DNA from: a virus
Taxonomy: Duplodnaviria; Heunggongvirae; Uroviricota; Caudoviricetes
Length of the DNA: 64,000 bases
Reading direction: 5' to 3' (one strand)
IMG/VR virus record: IMGVR_UViG_3300022747_000014
In this document: one piece after another, positions 253 to 40,688 of the stretch
Layout: each line of letters begins with the position of its first letter
How positions within the stretch are numbered: position 1 is the first letter of the stretch
Program-made: the position numbers and the translations under genes
Notes under the pieces: generated by a model
The model's database searches: none
What the model saw: only the letters and a program-made list of their open reading frames with translations
What the model was told of the DNA's origin: nothing

Positions 253-1200
253 ATGGAAAACAGTAACAAAATCAAATGGCTTATTGCCCACGAACCCGTA
301 GACCTATTTTTACGCACTGCTAAAGCGTTTGCAGCAGAAGTAAAAGCAGCTACAGCAGGACAAGTAGATATTGAAATCTACACAGCCAAGGAATTTGCAG
401 ACAAATTTAATGGTGGCCTAATAGAAAACCCAATGGTTTATATGGAACGTGGCCAACTTGAAATGAGCCAGTTGCATATTAGCCAGCTTTGGAAATGGAA
501 TGTTCCTGCGTTTATGGCGCTAGAAATGCCGTTTTTATTCACAGATCACGAGCATGCAACCCGTGTACTAGAAGGTGAAATTGGACAGGGCATGTTAACT
601 GAGCTTAAAGAAAAAAGCCCAGCACGTGGTTTGGCATTTACATACAGCGGCGGCTTCCGCATTGTTGCTAGCGACAAAGAAATTAACAACCTAGCAGACT
701 TTAAGAATCTAAGTTTCTACACTGGCACGAACCCAATTGGCATTGATACAATCGAAGCTATTGGTGGCCAACCAGATCCGCATGCAATTGAGGATTACTG
801 GAGTTCTATTCACACAGAAGGCGACTGCCACGATGCAGTTGATACAACGGTCCCTCGTTTACTAGCAACAGTTAATAAGAGTAAAAAACGTTACATCACC
901 GACACTAAACACAGCTTGTTCTTAACTAGCATTATTGTCAGTGAAAAGTTCTGGAGTAGTTTGTCTGATACACTCAAAGATAACCTAGGCCAAGCTGCAT
1001 TTAATGCTGCACGTTTAGAGCGCAAATGGAGTGTTGAAGATTCTGAGCGCATTGCACAAGAAGGCCAACAAGCCGGTGTGCAATATAAAGAACTAAGTGA
1101 AGTTGAAATGATGAAGTTCCGTGCATTAACAGAGCCGTTGTACACCAAGTACCAATCTGTGTTTATGCCTGGATTGATTGACAGCATTCGTCGCAGTTAA
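253..1200 (+). CDS. hypothetical protein; possible periplasmic solute-binding-like fold (DctP/TRAP-like?); paralog of 7884-8843
   Basis: 315-aa ORF with GGAG RBS at 238-241. Clear paralogy to ORF 7884-8843 (shared HEP..LF.RTAKAF, DH.HATRVL.GEIG, GLAFTYSGGFR motifs). Fold assignment is only a guess. Confidence 0.7.
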   Translation: MENSNKIKWLIAHEPVDLFLRTAKAFAAEVKAATAGQVDIEIYTAKEFADKFNGGLIENPMVYMERGQLEMSQLHISQLWKWNVPAFMALEMPFLFTDHEHATRVLEGEIGQGMLTELKEKSPARGLAFTYSGGFRIVASDKEINNLADFKNLSFYTGTNPIGIDTIEAIGGQPDPHAIEDYWSSIHTEGDCHDAVDTTVPRLLATVNKSKKRYITDTKHSLFLTSIIVSEKFWSSLSDTLKDNLGQAAFNAARLERKWSVEDSERIAQEGQQAGVQYKELSEVEMMKFRALTEPLYTKYQSVFMPGLIDSIRRS

Positions 1201-1228: not shown

Positions 1229-1672
1229 ATGAATATGATTCCTCTGTTTAATTCTGATTCTTTATCCGCACAACGGATAGTGCTGTTTTCAGTTAGCCGC
1301 ATACCAAGCAGTGCAACTATAAAACAAATCAAGGAATTTGATAGTTTATATAACGAGTTCGTCAATTTGGGAATTAACGACATTTATTGCTTGACCTTAA
1401 ATGAAGAACTGTTATATAATATGCTTTTGCCAAAGTTGTCAAACAAGATTAAATTTGTTTCGGGAATTGAACAGGTTATAGATTTGTTCAACAAACGAGG
1501 CAACATTGAGTTTTTAAAACAGTATTGGCATTTTGTGTCTATACTTGACAATTTTCGAATTGAACAGTATAATGAACAACCTTTCAAGGAAAAGTTAGGA
1601 ACTGATACAAACGTTTCGTTTTACAGTGAAATTTCTCCAAGAAAGTTGTTAACGCAGTTGACACAAAATTAA
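1229..1672 (+). CDS. hypothetical protein
   Basis: 147-aa ORF, AT-rich, directly follows the upstream gene. Confidence 0.5.
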   Translation: MNMIPLFNSDSLSAQRIVLFSVSRIPSSATIKQIKEFDSLYNEFVNLGINDIYCLTLNEELLYNMLLPKLSNKIKFVSGIEQVIDLFNKRGNIEFLKQYWHFVSILDNFRIEQYNEQPFKEKLGTDTNVSFYSEISPRKLLTQLTQN

Positions 1673-2051: not shown

Positions 2052-2929
2052 AGAAGCTTAGTTAGACATTGTGCTAACTAACAAAGTTCTTTAAAATTGT
2101 TAACGTATAAGTTCTTATACACATGCACATAGAGGTTCTGCGTCGAAAACAGAATTGATGTGATAGTAAGCAGGTTCGAAACTGTTTGCTATAAGGCAAC
2201 ATGCACTTTCTTAAAATAAGTGCAGCAGGTTTCGATTCCTGCGTGTGTGCAGATGTATAAGAATTTAATCTTTATTGTTTCGAGTATTTGCTCCAAGCGG
2301 TTATCAGAACAGGTTGACGGAAGCCTAACTACTGTCAACAAAGTCTGGGTACAATGAGGTAACGAACTCGTACACCGTGGGAGGTTTAAGTTAGGCCTTA
2401 CTCCTGTGTAAGTACTCGAAACAATAAAGATTTAAGGGCAGTTTAATGTCCTGCAAAGAGTATGGTTCGCCCAGCTTGATGCGAAGAATAACTGTGGTGA
2501 CACAGCCAAAGGAGGTATGCCTACATAACTCCGCTAGCAATAGTTCATTTAGACAAGCCTGCTCACTCCTGTGAGGGAGCGTTCACTCAGCGACGGGTGG
2601 ATGTAACAGTGACGCAAAGTGCATAGGGAAGAACGCTTGCTTAAACGCCTGAGATTGCATCAAGGGGAACGTTAGTAGGTGGAAAGTAACAGGTGGTGCT
2701 GACTTCTATGCGAAACCAACTTTGTTAATTGGTATGAGAAAGGGTAGTGTATTGGTTCGAAGGGTTGCACCTAAGAGCTCGTATGCAGTTTTAGTGGGTG
2801 GTGGCTGTAGTAATGCAGACGCTGGTCGCGAAAGACGACTGATTACTCCGCAAGAGGAAAGGTACGTGGTGTGTTGTATTGTGTAGAGCCAAAACTTTAC
2901 GCAGCAACTGAGTCAGCACATCGCAGTAG
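2052..2929 (+). ncRNA. candidate large structured non-coding RNA(s) downstream of the strong promoter (function unknown)
   Basis: No ORF of 60 aa or more in six frames across 1673-4014. Promoter immediately upstream. Long perfect inverted repeat, multiple hairpins, T-arm-like GGTTCGAAAC / GGTTTCGATTCC mimics. Flanked by tRNAs. Confidence 0.3.
2266..2433. repeat. long inverted repeat (20 bp or more, perfect) enclosing ~120 nt
   Basis: aatctttattgtttcgagta (2269-2288) is the exact reverse complement of tactcgaaacaataaagatt (2414-2433). Confidence 0.7.
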
Positions 2930-3001
2930 GTTGATATAGTTCATTGGTAGAACATCTGTCTCTTAAACAGAATGCGGTGGGTTCGATTCTCACTATCATT
3001 A
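2930..3001 (+). tRNA. tRNA-Lys (anticodon CTT)
   Basis: Acceptor GTTGATA/TATCATT (one U-U mismatch at 2:71), D-arm GTTC-ATTGGTA-GAAC, anticodon stem TCTGT/ACAGA, loop CTCTTAA, T-arm GTGGG-TTCGATT-CTCAC. CCA not encoded. Confidence 0.5.
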
Positions 3002-3075
3002 AAACGCAAAGACTGACTCGGTCATATGTGAAAAGCATCTAATACTAGACACGCAAGTGAATCTAGTCAGACGTA

Positions 3076-3279
3076 ACTCGCAAGGTGAAATCTGTTTATG
3101 CAGGAAGTTTCGTAGTTCGCAAGACTTAATGGCTCGCAAGGTCAACGGGATAGAAAGCATAGAATAGCATGTGACGACAAGCCTACTGCCTGGCTTTAAA
3201 AACGGCGATGCTGACAGCAGACTAGATTACATAGCAATATGGATTTAGTGGAAGTCGGAAGAAAGCAGACTCGCAAGGT
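3076..3279 (+). repeat. three copies of the motif (A/G)CTCGCAAGGT, plus a nearby GCAA-capped hairpin
   Basis: actcgcaaggt 3076-3086, gctcgcaaggt 3132-3142, actcgcaaggt 3269-3279. Hairpin ACTAGA-CAC-GCAA-GTG-AA-TCTAGT at 3045-3066. Confidence 0.5.
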
Positions 3280-3547
3280 TTGTAATAATGTCCGAGGTGT
3301 TGTTGGGAGAGATGTATTCTCAGTCCTCCACTTATATGCAAACACATTGTATTCAGTTAGACTCTGATAGCACTTGGGACGCTGGGTGCATAGCCAGCAG
3401 TGTGTTTACATATAAGTTTTTTGAGTAGTGACGCCTTTAGCGAGGGAGCCTAGTGTAGTACGGATTGTTCTTCGGTGCTATACGACACGGTCACGCTGTT
3501 GAAGAGTAAGAGAACATGAGCGACAGCCCACTACTCAAAGAATTTAT

Positions 3548-4877: not shown

Positions 4878-5312
4878 ATGTTATCGATTATCACTGACAC
4901 CCAACACCCAATACTTGATTACATCAAGGACGACCCTGTTCGCCCAGAAATCCCAAAAGAATTCCGGGTGAGTGGTAAACGGTTTGTTAGTGCATTGGTC
5001 AACGAAAAGCCTCGTGCAATAGTTTGTGTAAGTTTACATGACTTTGTTCCGGCAGCAGTAGAAGACTTATCACAAGAAACCGAACAACCAACAACAGCAA
5101 TTTTCTACACAATCTGGAGTTATGCTCCTGGCGCAGGTTTAGAATTGCTTCGCGAAACTGTAAACGAGATACGTAGTAGATTCCCGTACATCACTAGATT
5201 TGTTACACTAAGCCCAAAGACAGAAATGGCACGCCGTTTCCATCTTAAAAATGGTGCTTTTGTAATGCGTGAAAACGAAAATACAGTGAATTACGAGTAC
5301 CTGTTAATATAA
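4878..5312 (+). CDS. hypothetical protein
   Basis: 144-aa ORF followed by an intrinsic terminator. Confidence 0.55.
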   Translation: MLSIITDTQHPILDYIKDDPVRPEIPKEFRVSGKRFVSALVNEKPRAIVCVSLHDFVPAAVEDLSQETEQPTTAIFYTIWSYAPGAGLELLRETVNEIRSRFPYITRFVTLSPKTEMARRFHLKNGAFVMRENENTVNYEYLLI

Positions 5313-5388: not shown

Positions 5389-5982
5389 ATGCCAGCAAAT
5401 TTTTTAGTAAGTGACACACACTTTGGACACATGGGCGTATGTAAGTTTATGCGTAACGATGATCCAACGGTTAAGTTACGTCCGTGGGACAGTCCTGAAG
5501 AGATGGACGAGGAAATGATCCGCCGTTGGAACGACACTGTGCGCCCTAACGATAAAGTCTATCACTTAGGTGACGTTGTTATTAACCGCAAGGCCTTGGG
5601 TACATTACGCCGTTTGAATGGCGATAAAGTGTTGATCAAGGGCAACCACGATATTTTTCGCTTGGAAGAATACACAGAACACTTTCGCGATGTGCGCGGA
5701 TACCATGTATTGAACGGAATGATCTTAAGCCACATTCCTTTGCATGAAGAATCTTTGGGCCGGTTTGGGGTTAACATCCATGGGCACTTGCATGATCGCC
5801 GTGTTATGAAAACCACATGGGGAGGTGCTCGTCGAGAAATTGACACACGTTATCACTGCGTTTGTGTTGAACAGACCGACTTTGCACCTATTTTGTTTGA
5901 AGACGTTATCAAGCGTATTGAAGCCGAAGGCGGCACTGTTGGCATGAAAAGCAGGTCTGAGGCCTACGGCACAGCAATGTAA
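5389..5982 (+). CDS. calcineurin-like metallophosphoesterase
   Basis: Motifs DTHFGH (aa 9-14), GDVV, GNHD, GHLH typical of the metallophosphoesterase fold. Confidence 0.65.
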   Translation: MPANFLVSDTHFGHMGVCKFMRNDDPTVKLRPWDSPEEMDEEMIRRWNDTVRPNDKVYHLGDVVINRKALGTLRRLNGDKVLIKGNHDIFRLEEYTEHFRDVRGYHVLNGMILSHIPLHEESLGRFGVNIHGHLHDRRVMKTTWGGARREIDTRYHCVCVEQTDFAPILFEDVIKRIEAEGGTVGMKSRSEAYGTAM

Positions 5983-5984: not shown

Positions 5985-7280
5985 TTAGTAGACGGCTAAC
6001 CGTCCTTGAATACAATGAACATACTTGTTCTGATCATTTCTTGCGGCAGTTAGTGCGTCTAATTGTTTTACTGCACCTATAGACGGAATATTGCATTCTC
6101 CTATATAGTAAAACGGACTCATAAACCAAGCTATGTTTATCTTATTGCCTTTAACAGGGATAACGTATTTTTCATTGATGTTGTTTAAAATGTAATTAAC
6201 ACCGGCTTGCCACACTTGATATTCTTTTGTATTTTTGCAGTTCTGATGGAACCAATAATCCATTTCATTGAATACATTGTTTGTTGGCTTTGCCACTTGA
6301 AACGTATTGCAATCGTAGTCTGGGTAAATGATACTTTTTATAACATGCTCGTATAGCGTTCTATTTGCAAAATCGTTATTGGGCCAATTTAATGTTCTTT
6401 GGAACTGGTAATTCTGTGGCATAGAAAACCACTTCTTAACAGTGTGTGCCTGTTTACATAAAAGATCGCATGCGTCGGGGCTCCAGTAAAACAATTCGTT
6501 GGTTACATTGGTGTAGTCACCAATGTTAGAGTCAGTAAAAGCAGCCGGGAAATCAGCAAAATAAATCCAAAATTTTCCGTCTTTAACACATATGCGGGGT
6601 TTATCTACTCCGTATACTATTGCAATTTTTAAATCTTTGTCAGCATCTCGTTTGTGATCGTCGATACCAAAGTTTGTGTGCTTAAATGCATGTCCGGGCT
6701 GCAAAAAATGTTTAGTTCTAAGTACCCACGACTCATCTTCTGCGTTTTCAATTTGATCAGTGTAGTCATGTACTACTACTTTTGTTGCTGGGAAATTGGT
6801 TTTAATCCAGTGTAACAGCGGTTTTGCTGCAAAATCCCATTCGCTTAACGTATTTTCCGGAGTAGTGTCCCATGCATCTGATGTTGCATTTTTGTCTCCT
6901 TTTTTGGGATATCTAAACACAACCTCATCTAGGTGAATACCGTTTAATAAAAAACTATAAATTACAGTTGTACTATCACCACCACCGCTAGCTTCAACTC
7001 GGATGTAATCGTACTGATCTCTTAATTGTTGTGCACGTCTTCGATACAATTCTTGCAACGATTCTTCGGGTTCAATATGCCATGGATACGAAACAAAGGT
7101 CTGCTCGTTGAACATCCACTTGATGGTCTGCCCATTTAAAAATGTGCTGGCACCAGTGCTATTTCTTTCACTGAGCATAGCGTGATACTTGTTGTAATAT
7201 ATTTCGTTGTTATAAATGAAATACCCAAGTTTTTTATTTGTTTCTAGATTCACACCTAGAAATGTGGCATGTTCTTTCAT
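5985..7280 (-). CDS. PP-loop ATP pyrophosphatase superfamily protein (PAPS-reductase/QueC/TilS-like N-type ATPase)
   Basis: 431-aa ORF containing the SGGGDS PP-loop signature (VEASGGGDSTTVIYSFLL). Confidence 0.6.
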   Translation of the reverse strand: MKEHATFLGVNLETNKKLGYFIYNNEIYYNKYHAMLSERNSTGASTFLNGQTIKWMFNEQTFVSYPWHIEPEESLQELYRRRAQQLRDQYDYIRVEASGGGDSTTVIYSFLLNGIHLDEVVFRYPKKGDKNATSDAWDTTPENTLSEWDFAAKPLLHWIKTNFPATKVVVHDYTDQIENAEDESWVLRTKHFLQPGHAFKHTNFGIDDHKRDADKDLKIAIVYGVDKPRICVKDGKFWIYFADFPAAFTDSNIGDYTNVTNELFYWSPDACDLLCKQAHTVKKWFSMPQNYQFQRTLNWPNNDFANRTLYEHVIKSIIYPDYDCNTFQVAKPTNNVFNEMDYWFHQNCKNTKEYQVWQAGVNYILNNINEKYVIPVKGNKINIAWFMSPFYYIGECNIPSIGAVKQLDALTAARNDQNKYVHCIQGRLAVY

Positions 7281-7283
7281 GGA

Positions 7284-7808
7284 TTAATAATTTTCGCAGT
7301 GGTAGTTGAGTAAGAATTCTTTAACTTCGTTAAATGAAGCATCTCCGGGTCGTAGAGCTAGGATAAATCTAGGGTTGTTGCTGTAATTTATCACTGAATG
7401 CTCAAATGTGGTATTAAGTAACGCAGGGTACATTGGTTTATATATACACCTAGATATGTTGTACGTCAGTCTATTTTCAGTGGGCTCTCGTGCTAGAGTT
7501 AAATAGTCATTATCGTCAGACAGCATAAAGTTAATTGAACATTGACGATCAGTGTCCCTATGCCAGTCGTATGTTGTGTTGGGGCGATTTTGATAATAGT
7601 TAGCTCTTTGTACACCGCCGAATCTTTTATTCAAATCTTGATAAAATTTACTGTTTATAAAACTGCTAGGGCAACGGAAAACTCTACCTCGAGCCTCAGG
7701 AGTTTCGGGCGGGGTAAAATACTGTCCTGATAGTGCTTCGGTCCTATAAAAATCGTCTAGTCGTGGCAAATGTGTAAACTGACAAAAAGTATATTCAGGG
7801 TCTAGCAT
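7284..7808 (-). CDS. hypothetical protein, possible HxD...H oxygenase-like
   Basis: 174-aa ORF immediately upstream of, and co-oriented with, the PP-loop gene. Contains WHRDTD (HxD) and a later FEHS histidine. Assignment weak. Confidence 0.45.
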   Translation of the reverse strand: MLDPEYTFCQFTHLPRLDDFYRTEALSGQYFTPPETPEARGRVFRCPSSFINSKFYQDLNKRFGGVQRANYYQNRPNTTYDWHRDTDRQCSINFMLSDDNDYLTLAREPTENRLTYNISRCIYKPMYPALLNTTFEHSVINYSNNPRFILALRPGDASFNEVKEFLLNYHCENY

Positions 7809-7883: not shown

Positions 7884-8843
7884 ATGAAAAAATCGCACAC
7901 TATTCGCTGGGTGTTATACCACGAACCTATCCATTTGTTTATTCGTACAGCAAAAGCATTTTCTGAAGAAATTGAAAAATTAACAGATGGACGTATTAAC
8001 GTAGAAGTTTACACTCTAGAAGAATATGCCCAAAAGTTTAAAAATGGTGTAGTGTTTGAACCTATTGCATTAATCAACTCAGGTGAAATTGACATGAGCC
8101 AGATGCAAACTGGCATCATTGGGGTATGGAATGCACCGGATTTCTTTGCACTAGACATGCCTTATTTGTTTAAGGACCACGATCATGCGACTCGTGTATT
8201 AGATGGCGAAATTGGTCGTAAGATGCTTGATTCGTTGCAAGATGTTAGCCCAGTTCAGGGTCTAGCATTTACATACAGCGGTGGCTTCCGAGTGTTAGCA
8301 ACAGACCGTCCAGTAAATACAACAGAAGACTTAGAAGGTTTAAAGTTAATTACTACAGCTAATCCTGTTATGGTAGAAACTGCTAAAAAGTTAGGTTGTG
8401 AGCCGTTGCCATATATGATTAGAGATTTGCATTCAAAAGGCAAAGAATTGGTTTCTATCCAAGGACATAGTGTAGAAACAACTTTACCACGTTATGAGTA
8501 CGAAGCAGATACAACAGTTCAAACTCACATCGCTGATACAAAACACAGCATGTACTTGACTAGCATACTAATTTCTAAAGATTTATGGAATCAATTTGAC
8601 AGCGAAGATCAAGAACTAATCCGCCAGGCAGCTCGTTCGGCCGCAGTTCAAGAGCGTCAATGGAGTGTTGATGAAGCAGATGAGTATGCTGTGAATACCA
8701 AACGACACGAAGAACTTGGAATCACTTACACTAAATTTAGCGACGAAGAGTTAGACAAAATGCGCTCTGTGGTTACTCCACTCTACGACCACTACAGTCA
8801 ATTCTTTAGCGCAGGTTTGATTGACGGTATCGTTAAGTCTTAA
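7884..8843 (+). CDS. hypothetical protein; paralog of 253-1200 (solute-binding-like?)
   Basis: 319 aa. Strong paralogy to ORF 253-1200 across the N-terminal 150 aa. Confidence 0.7.
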   Translation: MKKSHTIRWVLYHEPIHLFIRTAKAFSEEIEKLTDGRINVEVYTLEEYAQKFKNGVVFEPIALINSGEIDMSQMQTGIIGVWNAPDFFALDMPYLFKDHDHATRVLDGEIGRKMLDSLQDVSPVQGLAFTYSGGFRVLATDRPVNTTEDLEGLKLITTANPVMVETAKKLGCEPLPYMIRDLHSKGKELVSIQGHSVETTLPRYEYEADTTVQTHIADTKHSMYLTSILISKDLWNQFDSEDQELIRQAARSAAVQERQWSVDEADEYAVNTKRHEELGITYTKFSDEELDKMRSVVTPLYDHYSQFFSAGLIDGIVKS

Positions 8844-8861
8844 TTTTATAGATTTTCGACT

Positions 8862-9497
8862 ATGGAAAATATAGTATTTTCCTTCTATCAAGATAAAAAA
8901 ATACAACAAATAACATGCCGGGACCTGCTTAGAAATAAGAGAGTCCTGGTTTGTTCTATAACTAGACCGTTTGATAGAATTGCTACTCAATACTCAGAGT
9001 ACCTAGCAACCAAGTTGGCATTTTATGCAAATTCTGGAATTGATGCTGTATACTTTGTAAACTCCACACACGGTTTATATTATCTATCTGTCTATCCTAT
9101 TAGAGTAGATGGAAGCAAAATTGATTTATTAGTAGATCCATCTAAGACCTGGGTTGCTTATGCAAAGCAATTGTTCAGTAAATCACAAGACGTTGACTTT
9201 CTATCAAAGTTTTGGAATTACCAAGTTTTGTTTAACAACGGAGAAATTGAACACTTTACTGAATCTAGTCTAGATGATCCTTTGAGAGAAGCTACTAAAT
9301 TTATTAATCCCAAAGAAATCAAATGGGTTGCGAAAGAATATATTACCGAAGATCCGAAGTTAGTAGTGTGGCGACCCAGTTTACTAATGACTTCACAAAA
9401 GCAGATACCGGTATTTCAGGCTATCTATTATCAGAATGTTTGGCCCAACCCTAAATTAGACAAATATCTAGTTGACACTAATACCGCTATCAAGTAA
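8862..9497 (+). CDS. hypothetical protein
   Basis: 211-aa ORF. Confidence 0.5.
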   Translation: MENIVFSFYQDKKIQQITCRDLLRNKRVLVCSITRPFDRIATQYSEYLATKLAFYANSGIDAVYFVNSTHGLYYLSVYPIRVDGSKIDLLVDPSKTWVAYAKQLFSKSQDVDFLSKFWNYQVLFNNGEIEHFTESSLDDPLREATKFINPKEIKWVAKEYITEDPKLVVWRPSLLMTSQKQIPVFQAIYYQNVWPNPKLDKYLVDTNTAIK

Positions 9498-10022: not shown

Positions 10023-10964
10023 TTACCAGATAAAGTGATTGGCATAGTATTCTACTATTGCCTTTAACTCGTGATCGAAACTAGCCTTGGGTGTCCATCC
10101 CAGGGCTTTTATTTTGTCATCATTGATTGCATAACGAACGTCTTGTCCCTGGCGTTTAATGCTGGGATCAAGATAAAGATCATGTTGAAGATCTGTGCTG
10201 CCTGTGTAGTAGTCAATGATCTTTTTTGCAACTACAATATTCTGTTCTTCGTAGTTGCCGGATATGTTGTAAATCTCGTTAGTAACACCTGCATCAATTA
10301 TGGCAATAACAGCAGAGGCGGTATCGCTAGCATGTAGCCAAGTTCTGCGAGGTAGACCTTGGTCATGCAACGGAATAGGTCTACCTAGACTCAGTGCCTT
10401 GATACTGTTAGGAATAAACTTTTCTGTATATTGGCCTATGCCGTAATTGTTGGTTGGGCGCACAATTACGTATGGCACATTGTAAGTACGTGCCCATGCG
10501 GTAACTAACATATCAGCTGCTGCTTTAGTGGCACTATAAGGGTTGCTGGGCTTTAGCATGTCGGTTTCATAATGTGCACCTTCGACAATATCACCGTAGA
10601 CTTCGTCTGTACTAAAGTGTAGCAATACAGGTTTACGCTTGCGGTCTTTAACCAACTCTAGTAGACGATGTACGCCGTTGATGTTGCTCTTTAAGAACAC
10701 ATCGCTGGATAATATGCTGTTGTCAACGTGACTCTCGGCAGCAGTATTGATAATATAATCGGCCTCGTATAGGTGATCTATGTCATTGATATCAGTCTCT
10801 TCGAATGTAAAGTTTGGCCACTTACGTAGTTCGTCGAGATCGCCATTGGCAGCATAGGTAATTTTATCTACGCCGCGAACAAACCAACCGCGTTCAAGAC
10901 AGGCCTTGGTTACATAATAGCCAATAAAGCCCAGACAACCAGTTACATATACAACTTTCTTCAT
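10023..10964 (-). CDS. NAD-dependent epimerase/dehydratase (dTDP-glucose 4,6-dehydratase RmlB-like)
   Basis: N-terminal Rossmann motif VTGCLGFIGYYV, catalytic YSATKAAAD (YxxxK), 313 aa. Confidence 0.75.
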   Translation of the reverse strand: MKKVVYVTGCLGFIGYYVTKACLERGWFVRGVDKITYAANGDLDELRKWPNFTFEETDINDIDHLYEADYIINTAAESHVDNSILSSDVFLKSNINGVHRLLELVKDRKRKPVLLHFSTDEVYGDIVEGAHYETDMLKPSNPYSATKAAADMLVTAWARTYNVPYVIVRPTNNYGIGQYTEKFIPNSIKALSLGRPIPLHDQGLPRRTWLHASDTASAVIAIIDAGVTNEIYNISGNYEEQNIVVAKKIIDYYTGSTDLQHDLYLDPSIKRQGQDVRYAINDDKIKALGWTPKASFDHELKAIVEYYANHFIW

Positions 10965-11482
10965 AACGATCTCCGTAGATTTAAATAGGCCGGAGTTGTG
11001 CTATACAAGAACTTTGCAAAGTCTTGTTCTAGCGAAGCAAGGTCAGTGGGTTTGTACAAATCAATATTAGACAACGACTTTAATACAACCTCGTCATCAT
11101 CTGCCCAATGGCTAATACCATCATGTGAGTAGTCTCGGTCTCTACCGGACCCAAGTAACTTAATTGGGATAGATTCCCAGTGTGCATAATTACGTAACAT
11201 TTCAAACGGTCTATATAACAAGAAACTGCTCATTGAGTAGCAAACAGGAATTAACCCTTCGTTGGCCATTCCAATGGCAACACCTATCATTAGATGTTCT
11301 GCTGCACCTACGTTGTAAAATCGATCAGGGTGTGCAGCACGTATAGGGTCTAGTACGCCGAACCCTAGGTCCGCAGTGATTACTCTAATGCGACTATCCT
11401 TATTCATTTCAGCTAGCAACAGGCCAGCACATTCACGACGCATATTTGATAATCTCCTGGTAGTTCTCTTCTTTAAGAACAT
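10961..11482 (-). CDS. transketolase-like protein, C-terminal (pyrimidine-binding) subunit, miniature
   Basis: Similar to the transketolase Pyr domain (HLMIGVAIGMANEGLIPV...GSGRDRDYSHDGISHWADDD). Likely true start at internal MRRECAG. Confidence 0.6.
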   Translation of the reverse strand: MFLKKRTTRRLSNMRRECAGLLLAEMNKDSRIRVITADLGFGVLDPIRAAHPDRFYNVGAAEHLMIGVAIGMANEGLIPVCYSMSSFLLYRPFEMLRNYAHWESIPIKLLGSGRDRDYSHDGISHWADDDEVVLKSLSNIDLYKPTDLASLEQDFAKFLYSTTPAYLNLRRSL

Positions 11483-12056
11483 AGTAATGTGTTAACAACT
11501 CAGAAGCAAAGGACCAACGCAGTGGATCGCTGACTCTGATGTTTATTCGGGGCATAAATGTAACTAGTCTGGATACCAGTCTAGGAATATCGACCATGTC
11601 ATATGCACCCATACCGTTGATGTTTATATAGACTTCTAAATTATCCACCGGATTATCGTTGATGAATCTCAAAGATTCCCATATGCTACCTTCAGCAGCT
11701 TCACCGTCACTGATCATGCAGTATACTTTCTTGTTGGGAGTTGCCAATGCATGTCCGACTGCAATGGGCAAACCTGATCCTAGGCTACCAGTTGAACAGT
11801 AAAGTTTATTTTCTAAGTCACGCCCTGGGTGTATGCCGTGTTTGTGTAACAGGGCAACTGGGTCAATGCCGTAATATTTTTCAAGTACAACATACAAGGC
11901 CAGCCCTGCATGCCCGTTGCTAAGAATAAAGACTTCGTCGTCTTTCTTTTGTTCGTAAATTTCTTCAATGATGGGCAATGCACTCAGTGTGCTGCTAAGG
12001 TGACTTAGTTTTTCTTGATAGGTAATATCAATAAGTCTACGAGCAGTTGTAATCAT
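11433..12056 (-). CDS. transketolase-like protein, N-terminal (ThDP-binding) subunit, miniature
   Basis: SNGHAGLALY, SLGSGLPIAVGHA and a GDG-like SDGEAAEGSIWE ThDP-binding motif. Overlaps the C-terminal subunit gene. Confidence 0.6.
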   Translation of the reverse strand: MITTARRLIDITYQEKLSHLSSTLSALPIIEEIYEQKKDDEVFILSNGHAGLALYVVLEKYYGIDPVALLHKHGIHPGRDLENKLYCSTGSLGSGLPIAVGHALATPNKKVYCMISDGEAAEGSIWESLRFINDNPVDNLEVYININGMGAYDMVDIPRLVSRLVTFMPRINIRVSDPLRWSFASELLTHYYVLKEENYQEIIKYAS

Positions 12057-12637
12057 AGTTTTTCGAGCTTAACTGCTCTTCCGATTCCGTTTTCAATAAC
12101 GTATTCACTATTCCATCTTGTACGTTCTGCATGTTTAAACATAAACTCGTGGTAAGCTCTACGTACACCAATGTGCTCCATGTCGTCAAACAATATTACA
12201 CCTTCGTTACCTTCTAGTAACTTGATTGCAAGATCGCCATCGACTGCAACATCTTCGTAATGGTGACTGCCGTCGATGATGATCAATCGAATATTCATGT
12301 CCTTGACCATCTCTTCACTGCATACTTCTAAGAATTCTTTACTAGTTGTTTCAAAGTGCACAATGTTAGTTAAACCCTGTGTGTTGGCCGCAAAGTTTTC
12401 CTTCTGTGTCATCATCTTATCGCCGGTAGTTTGGTAACTAGATCCAACGGTGTACCCGTCTTCAATGAATGGATCAATTGAGTAGACTATGCGATCCGGA
12501 AATGCCCGTGCAAGTCTAGCAGTACCTGCTCCATTAAATGCTCCAATTTCTAAGATGTTGCCGGCCAGGTTAGATAAAATAGATTCGGCAAGTGAATATA
12601 TGTGTCCACTCAGCACTTTTGCTTGATCATTCTGCAT
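12053..12637 (-). CDS. class I SAM-dependent methyltransferase (sugar O-methyltransferase-like)
   Basis: ILEIGAFNGAGT (motif I), IIIDGSHHYEDV. Confidence 0.55.
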   Translation of the reverse strand: MQNDQAKVLSGHIYSLAESILSNLAGNILEIGAFNGAGTARLARAFPDRIVYSIDPFIEDGYTVGSSYQTTGDKMMTQKENFAANTQGLTNIVHFETTSKEFLEVCSEEMVKDMNIRLIIIDGSHHYEDVAVDGDLAIKLLEGNEGVILFDDMEHIGVRRAYHEFMFKHAERTRWNSEYVIENGIGRAVKLEKL

Positions 12638-13454
12638 TTCTTAATTTTCCAATCATGTCTTTGATTCCCATTTCAATGGAGTATTCAGTTTTAAATCCGT
12701 ATTGTTGTTTGGCATAGTTAGTATCACATACCCATACCTTGCTTTCAAATGGTTTGCTAAACTCGTCTATGTATGTTACAGGAGCGGTGTTTATTCCGGA
12801 TACATGTTTCCAAGCATCTAGCACAGCTAGATTGCTATGTTGAACCCCGCTGCCAAAGTTAACAATCTCTCCCACTGGCCATGCGCGGTTTAATACCAGT
12901 TCTATGCCACGAACAAAGTCTTCGATATAGATAAAGTCATGGTACCCATCGTGTAATATCATTGCTTCTTTATGATAAAACGCTCTATATAGTTTTTGGA
13001 ATAGTCTATGTGGACGTTCGTATTGTCCAAACCCGCTGTAGATACGTGCCACTAGAGTTTGTAATCCAAACTGTCTAGCATATCCTTGACACATCAATGT
13101 AGCAGCACCCTTGGTTGCTTGATAAACATCCATTGGGTTAATAGGATCAGTTTCTGCACTGGCTCTAGGCATGGGCCCGTACTCTGCACTGGAACCCAGT
13201 TGTATTAGTCTAGTTTTTGGGTTTCGTTTGAGCCATTCTAAGATAGCTTCTACTAGATCTATGTTTGTACGATACATTTTATTTGCATCGTAGATTTCTC
13301 CTGCACAATTGATGATCAAATCGGGCTTGGATACTTCTAACATAATAAAGATATCAGTACCACGCACGTATTCAATTACTTCGTGCGTGGGTTCAAAGTG
13401 TTCTTTGAGACTGCGTCCAATGAATCCACTGGTGCCTGTAATAAAGATTTTCAT
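12627..13454 (-). CDS. NAD-dependent epimerase/dehydratase (NDP-sugar reductase/epimerase)
   Basis: ITGTSGFIGRSL Rossmann motif, YQATKGAAT (YxxxK). Start trimmed to internal MKIFITG (ATGA overlap with the upstream gene). The ORF track extends it to 13547. Confidence 0.65.
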   Translation of the reverse strand: MKIFITGTSGFIGRSLKEHFEPTHEVIEYVRGTDIFIMLEVSKPDLIINCAGEIYDANKMYRTNIDLVEAILEWLKRNPKTRLIQLGSSAEYGPMPRASAETDPINPMDVYQATKGAATLMCQGYARQFGLQTLVARIYSGFGQYERPHRLFQKLYRAFYHKEAMILHDGYHDFIYIEDFVRGIELVLNRAWPVGEIVNFGSGVQHSNLAVLDAWKHVSGINTAPVTYIDEFSKPFESKVWVCDTNYAKQQYGFKTEYSIEMGIKDMIGKLRNAE

Positions 13455-14092
13455 TTTACTATTTGAGTTAACATTTTTTCGGCCTGTGCCATACGTACCG
13501 GCTTGTGCAGTCCCGGCCAATGTACGATCCAGTCTCCGCTTTGCCATTCGCCACTATGTCCTAGTACGTCGGTGCGTACATCACAATAGTCGTATGGTTC
13601 TTGAACATAACTGTTCATGTAACGCTGCGGCACAATCTTGACTATGTCAAGATAATCATCAATGGTATCAATGATGACCTGCTGTTCTGCCCAGTTAGAC
13701 TCGGCATACTCTTGCTCACGATCAATGATCATTTGCAAATAGTCACGGCCCTGTTGGCTATTACGTACTAAGAAATTGCCTGCGTTGATGTTTAGTCGAT
13801 CGACAGGTACGATTACGTGGTAATCGTTGTCAATCTTGTCTTCTATTTTGATAGTATGGTTAGTGATAGTGGCATCGCACTCACTGAACAAACACCATTC
13901 TATGTCTGGATGTGTGTTAAACAGGTCCAACACATAATGAATCTTGTTAAAACCCATGATTGGGCTATACTTGGTGTCCTTAAGGACAAAGAACTCATAT
14001 CCGTAACGTGTGCAATATTCCTTTTTGGGTGCATCTGTTAGGTCAGCAAGGTCTTGATAGTTATCGGTATTGATGCTGGCTACAGCGTACAT
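13451..14092 (-). CDS. hypothetical protein, possible nucleotide-sugar glycosyltransferase
   Basis: Start trimmed to MYAVASIN (the track ORF reaches 14290 with a junk-like basic N-terminus). Family unresolved. Confidence 0.45.
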   Translation of the reverse strand: MYAVASINTDNYQDLADLTDAPKKEYCTRYGYEFFVLKDTKYSPIMGFNKIHYVLDLFNTHPDIEWCLFSECDATITNHTIKIEDKIDNDYHVIVPVDRLNINAGNFLVRNSQQGRDYLQMIIDREQEYAESNWAEQQVIIDTIDDYLDIVKIVPQRYMNSYVQEPYDYCDVRTDVLGHSGEWQSGDWIVHWPGLHKPVRMAQAEKMLTQIVK

Positions 14093-14132
14093 TGGAATCC
14101 TTGAAAATTTAATTTTACAATATTTATTGGGT

Positions 14133-14762
14133 TTATACAACTTGAAGTTTCTTCTTTTGCCAAAGCAATTTTCGAGCCTCAGACATTTTCTTTTTTGTTT
14201 CCTCAGACAATACTCTTCCTTTGAGAGAGTTAGATAGTTTGTCTTTTTGTTCCTGCGGCATCGGGCCTTTTGTCTTCCCTTTTTGTGCATCAGACAACTT
14301 TTTTCTTGTTTCTACAGACACTTCTCGACCTACTAGGTCAGGCCTCTTTCTCCCTATTTGCCAATCAGCCATTTTCTTTCTAGTTTCATTAGATGGGATT
14401 TTGCCCTTGTGTGCATCAGACATTTTCTTCCTTGTTTCATCACTGTGGGTTTTTCCTGTCATGCCAATGGTTTTTCCGCCGTTGCCTTCTTCGGATTTTA
14501 AATTGGCCCAACTAGTATCATAAACTACATTCCATAATTTACTAAAGTGTTTGCCCCAATATTTTACTTCTTCTTTAGTTTGACATTCTTTTAAAATTTC
14601 AGTAGTATAGTTGTATCCGTGTTTGTCTAAATGTTTGAGCCAATAGGTTCCTGACCCTGGGTATTTGTGTGGATCTTTTTTAGACGTTTGCCCTAGATAT
14701 TGAAGCCCGGTATTCTTGTGTGTCTTTTTGTACAAATAAATAGTCACTATACTGCCTTTCAA
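14133..14762 (-). CDS. GIY-YIG homing endonuclease (Seg/I-TevI-like) with NUMOD3 DNA-binding repeats
   Basis: N-terminal TIYLY...(10 aa)...YLGQT matches GIY-(x10)-YIG. C-terminal half has four tandem ETRKKMS(D/E)A(H/Q)KGK NUMOD3-like motifs. Confidence 0.7.
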   Translation of the reverse strand: MKGSIVTIYLYKKTHKNTGLQYLGQTSKKDPHKYPGSGTYWLKHLDKHGYNYTTEILKECQTKEEVKYWGKHFSKLWNVVYDTSWANLKSEEGNGGKTIGMTGKTHSDETRKKMSDAHKGKIPSNETRKKMADWQIGRKRPDLVGREVSVETRKKLSDAQKGKTKGPMPQEQKDKLSNSLKGRVLSEETKKKMSEARKLLWQKKKLQVV

Positions 14763-14774
14763 TTACATTTATTT

Positions 14775-15641
14775 ATGACTAAAATCTACGACTGCTTTAC
14801 CTTTTATAACGAACTTGACTTACTTGAACTTAGACTAGAAACACTGTACGATCATGTTGATCACTTTGTGCTAGTTGAAGCCGACACAACCTATACCAGC
14901 AGACCTAAACCATTTTATTTTGAGGACAACCGTGCCCGTTACAGCAAATGGGCAGACAAAATCATACATGTTAAAGCCACTATGCCAAGACATCCTGATG
15001 CATGGGTCAATGATAGATACCAAAGAGATCAAATATATGTAGGTATAGAACATGTCGATGCCAATGACTTGATCCTAGTGTCGGATCTAGACGAGATTGT
15101 GCGCCCTGCCGCAGTTGACTACATGCGAAACAGTGAACAAACAGTGTTTGCCTTGCGTATGAGCTTGCACAACTTTAAACTAAATTACATGAAGGTCAAT
15201 CCAGATCGCTATGCTATATGGGGCATGGCTGCACGTAGATCTGTGTTTGATGACATTAAACCAGATGCATTTAGACAGTTGCGATTTCAGTTTATGGATT
15301 CTCCCTATCAGTTTAGTAATGCAGGATGCCAAGTAGTCGAACACGGCGGTTGGCATTTTGGTTACATGGGAGACAAAGATTGGTTACTAGACAAAGCACA
15401 GAGTTTTGCACATACTGAGGTTAACAATCCTGAATTCCTATCTCAAATTGATCCAGATGCCAGTATTGCAAAAAGAACAAGCTGGCAGCAAAACAGCAGC
15501 GATAAATATGAAATAGTAGAACTTGACTCTTATTTCCCCGAGCCAGTTTTACGACACCAAGATCGATATCAAAAATATATTTTGGATAATGCAACAGCCA
15601 AAGCACTTGATTTGTTGCCTGCATATCCTTATAATGTGTAA
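14775..15641 (+). CDS. glycosyltransferase, GT17-like (beta-1,4-GlcNAc-transferase-like fold)
   Basis: N-terminal DCFTFYNELDLLELRLETL...DHFVLVEA matches the Glyco_transf_17 signature. Start trimmed to MTKIYD at 14775. Confidence 0.55.
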   Translation: MTKIYDCFTFYNELDLLELRLETLYDHVDHFVLVEADTTYTSRPKPFYFEDNRARYSKWADKIIHVKATMPRHPDAWVNDRYQRDQIYVGIEHVDANDLILVSDLDEIVRPAAVDYMRNSEQTVFALRMSLHNFKLNYMKVNPDRYAIWGMAARRSVFDDIKPDAFRQLRFQFMDSPYQFSNAGCQVVEHGGWHFGYMGDKDWLLDKAQSFAHTEVNNPEFLSQIDPDASIAKRTSWQQNSSDKYEIVELDSYFPEPVLRHQDRYQKYILDNATAKALDLLPAYPYNV

Positions 15642-15656
15642 TCTATTAGGAAATCA

Positions 15657-16697
15657 ATGACAAAAACCGTTTTAATTACCGGCGGGGCCGGTTTCATCGC
15701 GCATCATGCGATTGATAAAATTTTACGTGACACTGATTGGAACATTGTATGTCTAGATCGTCTAGACATCTCGGGTAACTTAAACAGACTGCATGACATG
15801 TTGCAAGATCACGACACTGCAACTGTTTCTAGCCGTTTACGTATTGTGTTTCATGATCTCAAGGCCGAACTTAACGAAATGATTGTTAAGCAGATTGGCC
15901 CAATTGACATTGTGTTGCACTTGGCTGCTGGCTCGCACGTAGATCGCAGCATCCAATATCCCATGGAGTTTGTACAAGACAACGTAGTTGGTACCGTTAA
16001 TCTATTAGACTATGCCCGTAAGCATTTGCCTAATTTGGAACGCTTTGTTTATTTCTCAACAGATGAAATATTCGGAGTAGCACCAATTGGTGTTAGCTAT
16101 AAAGAATACGATCGCTACAACAGCACAAACCCTTATTCGGCAAGTAAAGCAGCAGCAGAAGAGTTCTGCGTAGCCTACGAGAATACTTACAAAATGCCTA
16201 TCGTTGTTACACACACTATGAATGTGTTTGGCGAGCGTCAGCATCCGGAGAAGTTTATCCCAATGGTAATTCAACGTGCTCGTGATGGAGAGAAAGTCTA
16301 CATTCATGCCAACCCAGAGAAAACCGAAGCTGGTACACGTATGTACATTCACGCCAAGGACGTAGCAGATGGGCTAATGTTTATTCTGCAAAACGTGCCA
16401 CGTGATTACAAGCACCAAGGCGACTATGGTTCAGCACATTGTCCAAAGTTTAATCTTGTGGGCACTGAAGAAATTGATAACCTAACCCTTGCTGAGATGA
16501 TTGCCGCAGCGCAAGGTAAAGAACTCAACTACGAAATGGTTGATTTCCATGGCAGTCGTCCTGGGCATGACTTGCGTTACGCACTAGATGGCGGCCTACT
16601 TAAAGAGCTTGGTTGGGAACCTAAGATTAAACTCAGCGAACGTATTGCTGACATGACAAAATGGACATTGGAGAACGACAGATGGCTTTGCAAGTAA
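15657..16697 (+). CDS. NAD-dependent epimerase/dehydratase (dTDP-glucose 4,6-dehydratase family)
   Basis: ITGGAGFIAHH Rossmann motif, YSASKAAAEEF. Confidence 0.75.
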   Translation: MTKTVLITGGAGFIAHHAIDKILRDTDWNIVCLDRLDISGNLNRLHDMLQDHDTATVSSRLRIVFHDLKAELNEMIVKQIGPIDIVLHLAAGSHVDRSIQYPMEFVQDNVVGTVNLLDYARKHLPNLERFVYFSTDEIFGVAPIGVSYKEYDRYNSTNPYSASKAAAEEFCVAYENTYKMPIVVTHTMNVFGERQHPEKFIPMVIQRARDGEKVYIHANPEKTEAGTRMYIHAKDVADGLMFILQNVPRDYKHQGDYGSAHCPKFNLVGTEEIDNLTLAEMIAAAQGKELNYEMVDFHGSRPGHDLRYALDGGLLKELGWEPKIKLSERIADMTKWTLENDRWLCK

Positions 16698-17407
16698 AAC
16701 ATGCATTTATTGTAACCAGTGCTATCAACAGCAAGTTTGGTGTATTTAACCCCGCACAACGATTAGAACAAACGCTAGGCACCATCTGGAGTATCAAAGA
16801 ACGTATTCCTGATGCCAAGATCATTGTAATGGAAGTGTGTGGCACTCCGGTAACTGAAGAACAAGAACAATTACTGCGTTCTAACTCTGATATCTTTATT
16901 GATTGCAGCAGAGAAGATGATGTGCAAGCACTGTACGACAATGACAATTGGGATGTGGTAAAGAACGGTACCGAAATTATGTGTTTCGGCCGTGTGTTGT
17001 CCATTCTACAAGAAGAAAAATTACTAGACGGAGTTGATCGTGTGCACAAGGTATCAGGTCGATATATATTAAACAACAAGTTTGATGCTGAACTCTATGA
17101 GCGTGAAGAATTAGCAGACCGTATCATCATTGGTCCAAAGCACAAGAGTCAGTTTCCTATAGAAATAACCACAGTTCCATTACAATACATGGCACGTCTA
17201 TGGTCTTGGCCTGCCAACATTACTGATCAAGTTGTAAAAGTATACTTAGACAGCTTTAACTTCTTTGCAGAACGTTTAAGCCAAGGTGGTTACGTGGACA
17301 TTGAGCATGTACTGTATAAGTTTTTACCAACAGAATTAATACACGAAGAATCGGAATTGGGCATAGAAGGCGCAATTGCCCCCAATGGTGCACCAGTAAA
17401 GAACTAA
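16661..17407 (+). CDS. hypothetical protein in the sugar cluster (alternative start 16682)
   Basis: 248-aa ORF co-directional with and tightly packed against its neighbours. Confidence 0.5.
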   Translation: MDIGERQMALQVKHAFIVTSAINSKFGVFNPAQRLEQTLGTIWSIKERIPDAKIIVMEVCGTPVTEEQEQLLRSNSDIFIDCSREDDVQALYDNDNWDVVKNGTEIMCFGRVLSILQEEKLLDGVDRVHKVSGRYILNNKFDAELYEREELADRIIIGPKHKSQFPIEITTVPLQYMARLWSWPANITDQVVKVYLDSFNFFAERLSQGGYVDIEHVLYKFLPTELIHEESELGIEGAIAPNGAPVKN

Positions 17408-18630
17408 TGAGTAACTGTAAACCTATTACCAGTTGTTTGGCCTGCGGCAGTCTGGATCTAGTACTGACATTAGACCTACAAGATCAGCCGTTAGCCAACA
17501 GTTTTAAACCTACTAAGGACATTGCCAGCGAAGATTTTTATCCATTGGCAGTTAACCGATGCACACATTGTGATCACTTGCAGCTGACTCATGCAGTTGA
17601 TCCTGCACTTATCTACACTCATTACCTGTATGTCAGTGGTACCAGTGGTACTTACTTAGAGTATATGGATTGGTATGCAAAATTTGTTACAGAACAATTC
17701 TTAATACAGCCCGCTACAGTGTTAGACATTGGGTGCAATGATGGTAGTCAATTGAATGCATTTAAAAAGTTAGGCATCGAGACCTACGGTGTGGATCCTG
17801 CAGAGAACTTGTATCCCAAGTCTAGTGCAAATCACTCAGTGGTATGTGGATTCTGGACCAGAGAAACTGCTGCACAGTTGCCAAAGTTCGATATCATTAC
17901 TACACAGAATGCCTTTGCTCACATTCCTGAACCGCTGACATACTTAAATGTGGCCCGCGAGCATCTTGCTACTGATGGCAAGATTTTTATCAGCACAAGT
18001 CAAGCAGACATGGTTGTCAATGGAGAGTTTGACACAATCTATCACGAACACATCAGCTATTACAATGCAGCAAGTATGCAGGCACTTGCACGCCGAGCTG
18101 GTCTATACCTAGTAGACGTAGTTAAGACTCCTATTCACGGAACTAGCTATATCTTTGTACTGTCTAAGAACCCTGAAAATCAAAATCGCATTGAAAACAT
18201 CCTGGCCATGGAGTCGAATCTTCACAAGACCGACACTTACAGTACATGGGTAACGGATGTAAAACAATTGTTGATTGATCTAAAAATACAATTGGATCAA
18301 GCACGTGAGCAAGGTTACACTATTGTTGGATATGGTGCTGCTGCCAAGGGCATGACATTGATCAATGCCAGTGATATACGCTTGGATTGTGTAATAGATG
18401 ACAATCCGTTAAAGCAGGGGCTATATTGTCCAGGCACAGAGATTCCAGTTGTTGGTATTGAATGGTTAGATCAAGTTACTGATCCGGCTGAACTTATTTT
18501 GTTTGTGCCCTTGGCTTGGAATTTTTACGAAGAAATCAAACGTAAGATCAAATCTAAGCGTGATAACTTGGGTGATGTGTTTGTACGCTACTTTCCTAGA
18601 ATCATGTACGAACGCGGAGATGCCAAATGA
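17407..18630 (+). CDS. NDP-hexose C-methyltransferase (TylC3-like): Zn-ribbon + class I MTase + C-terminal domain
   Basis: N-terminal CLACGS...CTHCDHL zinc-binding domain, then VLDIGCNDGSQ SAM motif, then a long C-terminal domain, as in sugar 3-C-methyltransferases. Confidence 0.65.
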   Translation: MSNCKPITSCLACGSLDLVLTLDLQDQPLANSFKPTKDIASEDFYPLAVNRCTHCDHLQLTHAVDPALIYTHYLYVSGTSGTYLEYMDWYAKFVTEQFLIQPATVLDIGCNDGSQLNAFKKLGIETYGVDPAENLYPKSSANHSVVCGFWTRETAAQLPKFDIITTQNAFAHIPEPLTYLNVAREHLATDGKIFISTSQADMVVNGEFDTIYHEHISYYNAASMQALARRAGLYLVDVVKTPIHGTSYIFVLSKNPENQNRIENILAMESNLHKTDTYSTWVTDVKQLLIDLKIQLDQAREQGYTIVGYGAAAKGMTLINASDIRLDCVIDDNPLKQGLYCPGTEIPVVGIEWLDQVTDPAELILFVPLAWNFYEEIKRKIKSKRDNLGDVFVRYFPRIMYERGDAK

Positions 18631-40199: not shown

Positions 40200-40688
40200 A
40201 TGCAGACTATCAAATCATATTTATACCCAAACACAGTGGAGGTCCAAATTTTGGACACCACTATATTCACTACAAGGAACAGAGTTGTGTACAGCCGTCC
40301 AATAAAAGTTTATCAAGGAATTGATAACCCACTACAGATATTAGTTCTAAATCAAGACCAGAAAAAGGTAAACTTAACTGGCTACATCATGCAGGCCTCC
40401 ATACAGGACCCAACCAACGGAGTTACTGTAGAAAGCTACGCTGTTACTTTTGCAGACATTACCAAAGGAATAGGTACTTTTGTAATTGATAGAGCAACAA
40501 TCAATGCATTAGAGCAACGCTTTTATAAACTAACATTTAAAACAATTAAACAAAGCGACAACTCGGAACGTCCAGTCTATATCGACGACAACCATGGAGT
40601 TCCGTTAGATCTACAAGTGTTACCAGCGTATTACGCAGACTCTGCTAGTGACGGAAGTGAAGTTATATTTGATGGTGGAGTAATTTAA
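40200..40688 (+). CDS. hypothetical virion/tail-fibre-associated protein
   Basis: 162 aa; ATGA overlap with the tail-fibre gene. Confidence 0.5.

Follow-up and report, generated by a model that had tools for sequence, protein, structure and literature searches.

A phage-restricted PP-loop ATP pyrophosphatase family with a predicted AsnB-type synthetase fold, linked to carboxylate-binding proteins and small oxygenases in freshwater T4-like phages

What reaction is served by a PP-loop ATP pyrophosphatase and a small oxygenase encoded side by side in a phage genome, and is its substrate a nucleic acid? The question arises from a 64,000-nucleotide stretch of Caudoviricetes DNA (IMG/VR record IMGVR_UViG_3300022747_000014; hereafter the window), in which an initial annotation had assigned the two genes to a possible DNA or tRNA modification system together with a radical-SAM enzyme and a sugar cluster. 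The minus-strand open reading frames lie at the coordinates which that annotation gave: a 431-aa PP-loop ATP pyrophosphatase gene (5985..7280), identified from the ORF list, motif and fold, and a 174-aa gene (7284..7808), assigned by motif and fold to the small 2-oxoglutarate (2OG)/Fe(II) oxygenases of the AspH/prolyl-hydroxylase type. Both motifs are present. The 174-aa gene lies upstream and the junction between the two reads TAA-tcc-ATG; because the spacer is only 3 nt, co-transcription is likely.

The window encodes a UvsW-type helicase, a DnaB-like helicase, GroES/GroEL, six tRNAs and tail-fibre proteins carrying Mtd_N and collagen domains, and homologs of gp45, gp44, RegA, UvsX and RNase H are present in related loci. 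It therefore derives from a T4-like phage from freshwater metagenomes. Contigs bearing these genes reach 108,754 bp, and among 50,697 deposited phage records no DNA relative of the window was found, with tRNA segments alone matching. Both operon genes sit in a variable, tRNA-gene-rich accessory island of freshwater T4-like phages. Convergent with the PP-loop gene, with 2 nt between the stop codons, is a metallophosphoesterase gene (197 aa; 5389..5982, plus strand; phrog_547, E 1e-48). It belongs to a cluster (c11) found again beside PP-loop genes of the window type, and in locus L086 it occupies the same place although the PP-loop gene is absent; we treat it as a context gene and make no claim for it as a functional partner. 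Consensus scans of the operon for sigma-70 promoters and terminators gave chance-level hits only, no riboswitch was found nearby, and a T4 late-promoter-type TATAAATA upstream of the 174-aa ORF was discarded since the window contains 4 such sites where 4.0 are expected by chance.

The 431-aa protein contains RVEASGGGDSTT, and its SGGxDS pyrophosphate-binding loop follows the first β-strand of a Rossmann-like core, the arrangement characteristic of the PP-loop superfamily. Motif and fold thus bear out the proposed identity of the enzyme as a PP-loop ATP pyrophosphatase. Conservation was computed over 55 relatives (25–47% identity), in all of which K31, Y79, R82, R87, S98, D102, F110, D118, D243, F264 and K331 are invariant. 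Because S98 and D102 are invariant and G99, G100 and S103 are at least 90% conserved, SGGxDS is a defining feature of the family, and judged from this alignment its occurrence in the 431-aa protein is not due to chance. The loop is reached through a helix from an N-terminal region of ~70 aa that is β-rich, conserved and specific to the family. Within this region G19 and W67 are nearly invariant, as is G224 further along the chain. The median pI of the family is 6.5.

Cysteine does not exceed 7% in any column of the family alignment. With no conserved Cys, the QueC zinc site, the sulfur chemistry of the DndC/TtcA/PAPS-reductase type and the Fe-S and Zn chemistries of PP-loop enzymes are therefore excluded; neither a QueC domain match with its cysteine-rich Zn site nor a PAPS_reduct match with the catalytic or Fe-S cysteines of PAPS reductase, DndC or TtcA was found in the family. 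These observations bear directly on the proposal that the enzyme provides the adenylating step of a DNA nucleobase hypermodification pathway of the 7-deazaguanine, sulfur or amino-acid-appended pyrimidine type. Nucleic-acid modification pathways do employ both PP-loop enzymes and 2OG oxygenases, one diverged family member gave a sub-threshold QueC match (E 0.011) over the PP-loop segment, some loci share a recurrent cluster of radical-SAM genes (c8) and a dCMP deaminase gene lies near the homologs in L004 and L086. Against this stand not only the missing cysteines but also the conserved partners of the PP-loop genes, which are carboxylate-binding proteins and small oxygenases. Precomputed Pfam annotation revealed no queC, queD, queE, folE, dpdA, hmdU-kinase or other nucleotide-kinase gene in the window. 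The radical-SAM gene suggested as part of the system is 44 kb away, after the DnaB-like helicase, and the sugar cluster (10,023-20,960), which encodes epimerases, dehydratases, GT17 and GT34 glycosyltransferases, methyltransferases and a split TPP enzyme, is adjacent in the window lineage but not in most other PP-loop loci. A hypermodification role for DNA or tRNA is thus not supported. The evidence points to small-acid chemistry rather than DNA modification, and the reading of the locus as a DNA-hypermodification cassette, which we now consider very improbable, is removed as a false lead.

In its predicted structure the 431-aa protein has the fold of the AsnB synthetase domain, together with the helical C-terminal subdomain in which the acyl-adenylate pocket is formed. 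Its closest known counterparts are the AsnB synthetase domain, β-lactam synthetase (1jgt), the carbapenam synthetase CarA (1q15) and the hydroxyamidotransferase TsnB9 (7ylz), so that the predicted architecture of the protein corresponds to the synthetase half of AsnB, of the β-lactam synthetases and of the carbapenam synthetases. This statement about the fold is much more secure than the even chance that we assign below to the overall functional picture. Each of the five top structural matches is an enzyme that activates a carboxylate of its substrate by adenylation before forming an amide. The AsnB assignment rests on the predicted structure because sequence-profile methods reach no further than the PP-loop: hhalign of the family against E. 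coli AsnB aligned the PP-loop alone, as did its comparison with a profile of six AsnB-type sequences from E. coli, a plasmid and phage (hhalign probabilities 2–4%). The invariant D243 and K331 and the nearly invariant G224 are candidate equivalents of AsnB catalytic residues.

The family departs from AsnB-type enzymes in several respects. It has no Ntn glutaminase domain and carries its own N-terminal region instead. The 431-aa protein begins MKEH and has neither an active nor a degenerate form of that domain with a Cys after the initiator Met, whereas all six of the reference AsnB-type sequences begin (M/L/V)CG or MCS. Sequence similarity to AsnB-type enzymes is undetectable outside the PP-loop, and the family is confined to phages and linked to solute-binding proteins.

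Curated libraries give the 431-aa protein no name. It matches nothing in NCBIfam, PADLOC or Pfam (no Pfam match at E <= 1, Asn_synthase included), and its single PHROG match spans 26 residues of phrog_5961, a 52-position profile of unknown function. Searches of PDB sequences with the protein (phmmer) and with two family profiles returned no significant match; hits to influenza PB2, CptN and DpnA are non-significant and were rejected. Ten diverged members likewise match no named family and show no Asn_synthase match at E <= 0.1.

The family is nevertheless very large. A word-indexed search with the 431-aa protein recovered 772 clusters at 90% identity, while an exhaustive HMM search of 1.84 billion representatives recovered 1,666 clusters, defined at 50% identity, at E <= 0.001 (1,348 at E <= 1e-10). 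In IMG/VR, 172 stretches were confirmed to carry the family. By comparison, a pattern-seeded scan of bacterial and archaeal genomes (185,579 species, one genome each), seeded with alignment A1, the broader A2 being too diverse to serve as a seed, gave 1 match, on a 3-kb MAG contig. In the 50,697 phage records, tblastn with the window protein or with a diverged member as query gave no match. The only good matches in the viral structure library BFVD are six entries described as 'uncharacterized protein, uncultured Caudovirales phage' (TM 0.64-0.83). A second BFVD tier (E 1e-5 to 1e-3) contains phage 'asparagine synthase' (e.g. of Achromobacter phage Motura) and COG3969/PAPS-reductase-like phage proteins, which also have a PP-loop but align with TM 0.2-0.4 only. 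The family is effectively phage-restricted.

Phage loci often carry more than one copy: 78 loci together hold 119 family genes, and tandem arrays of two or three occur. At the median, paralogs from one locus are ~31% identical and the gap from one PP-loop gene to the next is -4 nt. The low identity suggests diversified specificities and not a single housekeeping reaction. Together these data weigh against the view that the gene is an ordinary auxiliary metabolic gene, which as an asparagine (or NAD/NMN) synthetase dependent on ammonia would simply raise the output of a host housekeeping reaction. Curated Asn_synthase and NAD_synthase models match none of the 11 family members tested, the family is absent, on the scan described above, from cellular genomes, whereas metabolic genes in phages typically have recognisable host homologs, and neither the divergent tandem paralogs nor the unique conserved N-terminal region with its invariant K31 would be expected of such an enzyme. 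We consider this explanation unlikely. A confident housekeeping assignment (e.g. NAD synthetase), the outcome that the initial annotation had itself named as telling against its proposal, was not found.

The partner encoded in the operon is more readily classified. The 174-aa protein contains WHRDTD...EHSVIN, and over 35 relatives Y80, D81, W82, H83, D85, Y123, H137, N141 and R147 are invariant; as read from these sequences, the iron/2OG motif is not due to chance. A double-stranded β-helix, the HxD/E...H iron triad and a basic residue for the C5 carboxylate of 2OG are all present, and the nearest structural relatives include AspH, prolyl 4-hydroxylases and lysyl hydroxylases. PF05118 (Asp/Asn β-hydroxylase; Asp_Arg_Hydrox) is matched by 15 of the 35 relatives at E <= 0.1 (best 8.2e-6), whereas the window protein scores 13.3 bits, below the cut-off of 22.6. 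It is therefore a distant relative and not a confirmed member of PF05118, and in comparison with AspH and the prolyl/proline hydroxylases it is a minimal domain. Of the earlier suggestion, 'Fe/2OG oxygenase or cupin', the oxygenase is borne out by motif and fold. The apparent orphan status of the protein in a first homolog search was a sensitivity artefact, as HMMER searches of neighbouring loci found relatives, and a profile search with the family recovered 57 clusters.

The genomic positions of these relatives show the 174-aa gene to be mobile, occurring in several contexts. The locus of its closest relative (55% identity) is syntenic, with DctP, a 173-aa gene, a phosphoesterase and an MCD-like gene; the PP-loop gene is missing. 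A second relative lies inside a replication module, between sliding-clamp and clamp-loader genes, and a third in an island of TctC genes. Beside one TctC gene of that island is an unannotated 394-aa gene, which is probably a member of the PP-loop family. The pairing of the 174-aa and 431-aa genes is thus lineage-specific and not conserved as an orthologous pair; in L004 the 168-aa and 217-aa neighbours, considered as counterparts, proved not to be homologs of the 174-aa and 211-aa proteins of the window. PP-loop genes are, in turn, translationally coupled to other small oxygenase-like genes (median gaps -4 to +3 nt). One such cluster (c41) matches 2OG-FeII_Oxy_3, and another (c15) is homologous to the window 174-aa family (hhalign probability 94%, with the HxD and H...R motifs in register), while the case for a third (c16) is only suggestive. 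The pairing of a PP-loop gene with a small oxygenase therefore recurs with different oxygenase lineages.

Such pairs could also act on a protein or peptide. The AsnB-like enzyme would then amidate or cyclise an Asp or Glu side chain, as lasso-peptide cyclases do, and the oxygenase would hydroxylate the same target. Enzymes of the AsnB fold include peptide macrolactam synthetases, and protein hydroxylases (AspH, prolyl 4- and lysyl hydroxylases) are among the nearest structural neighbours of the 174-aa protein, with PF05118 itself an Asp/Asn β-hydroxylase family. The pairs are both recurrent and tightly coupled. The window moreover encodes collagen-repeat tail-fibre proteins, collagen repeats being classic hydroxylase substrates. 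We nevertheless hold a protein or peptide target to be improbable; small organic or amino acids are favoured by the remaining neighbours of the PP-loop genes.

Divergent from the operon is a gene for a 319-aa DctP-family (TRAP-type) carboxylate-binding protein without a signal peptide (7884..8843, plus strand; PF03480, E 2e-40), followed by one for a 211-aa redoxin-like, thioredoxin-fold protein (8862..9497, plus strand; phrog_2281, E 1.8e-8) whose cluster (c33) has a representative matching Pfam Redoxin (E 2.8e-4). The same pair occurs a second time in the window, as a 315-aa DctP-like paralog, again without a signal peptide (253..1200, plus strand; 40% identity to 7884-8843), and a distant 147-aa redoxin-like paralog (1229..1672, plus strand; 24% identity and E 8e-8 in a single BLASTP comparison). 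The operon had been described as bracketed by duplicated genes; the duplication is real, and the right-hand copy abuts the operon, but the left-hand copy is 4.3 kb away, with tRNA genes, a GOLLD RNA and three other ORFs between.

The 319-aa protein aligns over its full length with solved TRAP binding proteins. R136 corresponds to an Arg common to the three best-matching of these, described in the TRAP literature as the clamp for the ligand carboxylate, and the column is Arg in 48 of the 57 non-gap members of the DctP cluster. Domain and clamp-type Arg are thus both retained, whereas the periplasmic export signal is absent. By a simple hydrophobicity criterion 70 of 72 DctP-like phage homologs have no N-terminal hydrophobic segment or signal peptide, and the window ORFs cannot be extended upstream; the DctP-like proteins are hence predicted to stay in the cytoplasm. 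They further differ from TRAP binding proteins in their redoxin-like partner, whose gene lies directly downstream of DctP in 28 of the best 80 loci of a DctP-seeded search and is the tightest partner of this DctP subfamily. The TctC-like proteins, which match the TTT (TctC/Bug) family PF03401, do carry signal peptides (59 of 67 by the same simple hydrophobicity criterion). Membrane subunits (DctQM, TctAB) were not seen in the loci.

To place these genes relative to the PP-loop family, ORFs were called and clustered in 78 IMG/VR loci plus the window. The DctP cluster is present in 52 of the 79 PP-loop loci and the TctC cluster in 48. A DctP or TctC gene lies within two genes of 70 of 96 unique PP-loop genes, compared with 17.6% of other genes in the same loci, and the median intergenic distance is -1 nt from TctC to PP-loop and 152 nt from PP-loop to DctP. 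For the window's own PP-loop subgroup the proportion is 9 of 16, and the window itself has two DctP-like genes beside its single PP-loop gene and lacks TctC. The linkage is asymmetric: the DctP-seeded search found 420 IMG/VR stretches, and of the best 80 loci no more than 27 hold a PP-loop gene. Sharing a hypervariable island could make the association between PP-loop and binding-protein genes look stronger than it is. Single-linkage clustering at 42% identity merged most PP-loop members and so separated no subfamilies by their pairing with DctP or TctC.

The island is also a phage tRNA island, with tRNAs in 64 of the 79 loci, and this raises the possibility of a tRNA-directed PP-loop enzyme. 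Such an analogue of TilS, which acts on tRNA-Ile(CAU), would adenylate a base of a phage tRNA, C34 of tRNA(CAU) for example, and attach an amine to it, which would make the phage tRNAs functional in the host. A same-strand tRNA, usually tRNA(CAU), is found at most 150 bp upstream of 17.7% of PP-loop genes and 6.2% of other genes, an enrichment of about three times that leaves room for an RNA substrate. However most PP-loop genes have no adjacent tRNA, the match of TilS to the 431-aa protein is at the level of the generic core only, and the protein has neither the PF01171 PP-loop domain nor the C-terminal tRNA-binding domains of TilS. We regard a tRNA substrate as quite unlikely.

We therefore return to small-acid chemistry. 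By analogy with its structural relatives, the 431-aa enzyme, a cytoplasmic protein on our reading, would take up ATP at the SGGxDS loop and use it to adenylate a carboxylate of the substrate with release of pyrophosphate, after which a nitrogen nucleophile would displace AMP to give an amide or lactam. The enzyme has no glutaminase domain, so free ammonia, an amine or an amino group of the substrate itself would serve as this nucleophile. The 174-aa hydroxylase is probably translated together with the ligase, and the two enzymes probably share a substrate or act on related ones. Given the linked carboxylate-binding proteins, the substrate most likely belongs to the small organic acids or amino acids, with di- and tricarboxylates and acidic amino acids as examples. 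The secreted TctC-like receptor could dock onto a host tripartite tricarboxylate permease, and the phage may in this way have an acid imported or captured that would then be hydroxylated and amidated during infection. We give the overall picture, ATP-dependent carboxylate activation and amide or lactam formation coupled to a small 2OG hydroxylase acting on a small organic or amino acid, about an even chance of being correct; the specific link to uptake is less secure. Reading frames, motifs, folds, phage restriction and gene linkage are observed, while carboxylate adenylation, the nucleophile, the class of substrate and any gain for the phage are inferred from them.

A more elaborate version, which we offer tentatively and think unlikely to hold in full, is a self-contained 'import and convert' pathway of freshwater T4-like phages. 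Here the TctC-like receptor would hijack the host TTT permease, the cytoplasmic DctP-like protein would capture the incoming acid, and the 2OG hydroxylase and the ligase would turn it into a hydroxylated amide or lactam, in a scheme that parallels the CarA/CarC and BLS/CAS steps of β-lactam biosynthesis. The host would probably belong to the Betaproteobacteria, the tandem divergent paralogs would represent several substrate specificities, and the product might be a bioactive small molecule or a trap for a scarce nutrient.

We found no description of the PP-loop family or of the module in the literature searched. The class of chemistry is already known, but the libraries and literature searched describe neither the family nor its N-terminal region, and they record neither its confinement to phages nor its association with small oxygenases and with TctC- and DctP-like proteins. 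To a very large family (hundreds of IMG/VR loci), seen in uncultured aquatic phages only, the analysis thereby assigns a fold, a probable type of reaction (carboxylate activation driven by ATP) and reproducible genetic partners in the form of solute-binding proteins and small hydroxylases, which turns a piece of viral dark matter into a testable hypothesis. Phages are known to reprogram host nutrient acquisition through PstS-type proteins, and if the link to uptake is functional the module would be a new route to the same end, beyond these examples. Should it make a lactam or a modified amino acid, the module would be among the rare examples of small-molecule biosynthesis encoded by a phage.

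In the window, a DctP-like gene that lacks a signal peptide is followed, 19-29 nt on, by a redoxin-like gene, and this pair occurs twice (253-1672 and 7884-9497). The same DctP-like/redoxin-like pair was found again in 28 of 80 IMG/VR loci, the best 80 among 420 stretches recovered with the DctP-like protein. Inspection by eye of three redoxin-like sequences indicates that they do not conserve the catalytic cysteine usual in peroxiredoxins. In several related IMG/VR phage loci the DctP-like gene takes the form of two adjoining half-length ORFs of about 156-162 aa (half-length ORFs at L006:11353-11841, L008:11850-12320, L012:13474-13962 and L042:9813-10301), an arrangement that may reflect a split gene or a frameshift instead of tandem copies. 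Protein cluster c17, a small DUF2061-family protein with a predicted membrane location, recurs between the PP-loop and DctP-like genes, giving the order PP, PP, DUF2061, DctP in loci L046, L052, L053, L064 and L009; the DUF2061 protein is absent from the window.

In 11 unique cases the PP-loop gene is directly preceded by a lone tRNA(CAU) on the same strand, sometimes followed by a tRNA-Arg(UCU); examples of the tRNA(CAU) among these cases lie at L023:7940-8014, L026:7882-7956, L039:7890-7966, L042:7910-7984 and L063:7912-7986. The window itself carries a GOLLD RNA (Rfam RF02032) on the plus strand at 2866-3326. The match runs the full length of the model (positions 1-416 of 416) and scores 207.4 bits, where the gathering score is 150, with an E of 6.7e-58; a tRNA-Lys(CUU) lies inside the RNA at 2930-3001. 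The GOLLD RNA sits in an ORF-poor tRNA region that separates the first DctP/redoxin pair from a 188-aa ORF.

Elsewhere in the window, a 144-aa ORF (4878-5312) matches the malonyl-CoA decarboxylase C-terminal domain (PF05292, E 1.8e-8), and its place beside the phosphoesterase gene is kept in L086, the locus of the closest relative of the 174-aa oxygenase. A large sugar-modification cluster occupies both strands at 10023-20960 and includes three NAD-dependent epimerase/dehydratase genes, glycosyltransferases of families GT17 and GT34, methyltransferases, a TPP/transketolase-like enzyme in two ORFs and a NUMOD3 homing-endonuclease-like gene. The DnaB-like helicase has a Pirin-family cupin gene (48340-49047) on its upstream side and is directly followed by a radical-SAM gene (51568-52668); radical-SAM genes of cluster c8 recur in 16 PP-loop loci. 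Four ORFs (40688-48374 and 61603-63252) contain an Mtd_N (major tropism determinant N-terminal) domain, combined variously with collagen repeats, a laminin-G/lectin domain or a pectate-lyase-like domain, while a fifth ORF (45952-46740) has collagen repeats only. Together the Mtd_N and collagen-repeat ORFs probably encode a group of receptor-binding fibres.

Finally, seven related loci have a tmRNA downstream of the PP-loop/binding-protein module, at a distance of 2-4 kb (L021:12866-13235, L023:11266-11667, L026:11240-11500, L027:11417-11909, L033:5276-5569, L039:11530-11914 and L064:11341-11808); a search of the window found none. The Betaproteobacteria-type tmRNA model RF01850 (up to 162 bits) and the permuted-tmRNA model RF04321 were both matched in six of the seven, the L026 tmRNA matching RF04321 only, and the tag peptides of these loci include ANDEQFALAA. 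These tmRNAs suggest that the hosts of the related phages are betaproteobacterial. The Betaproteobacteria are rich in TctC/Bug genes.
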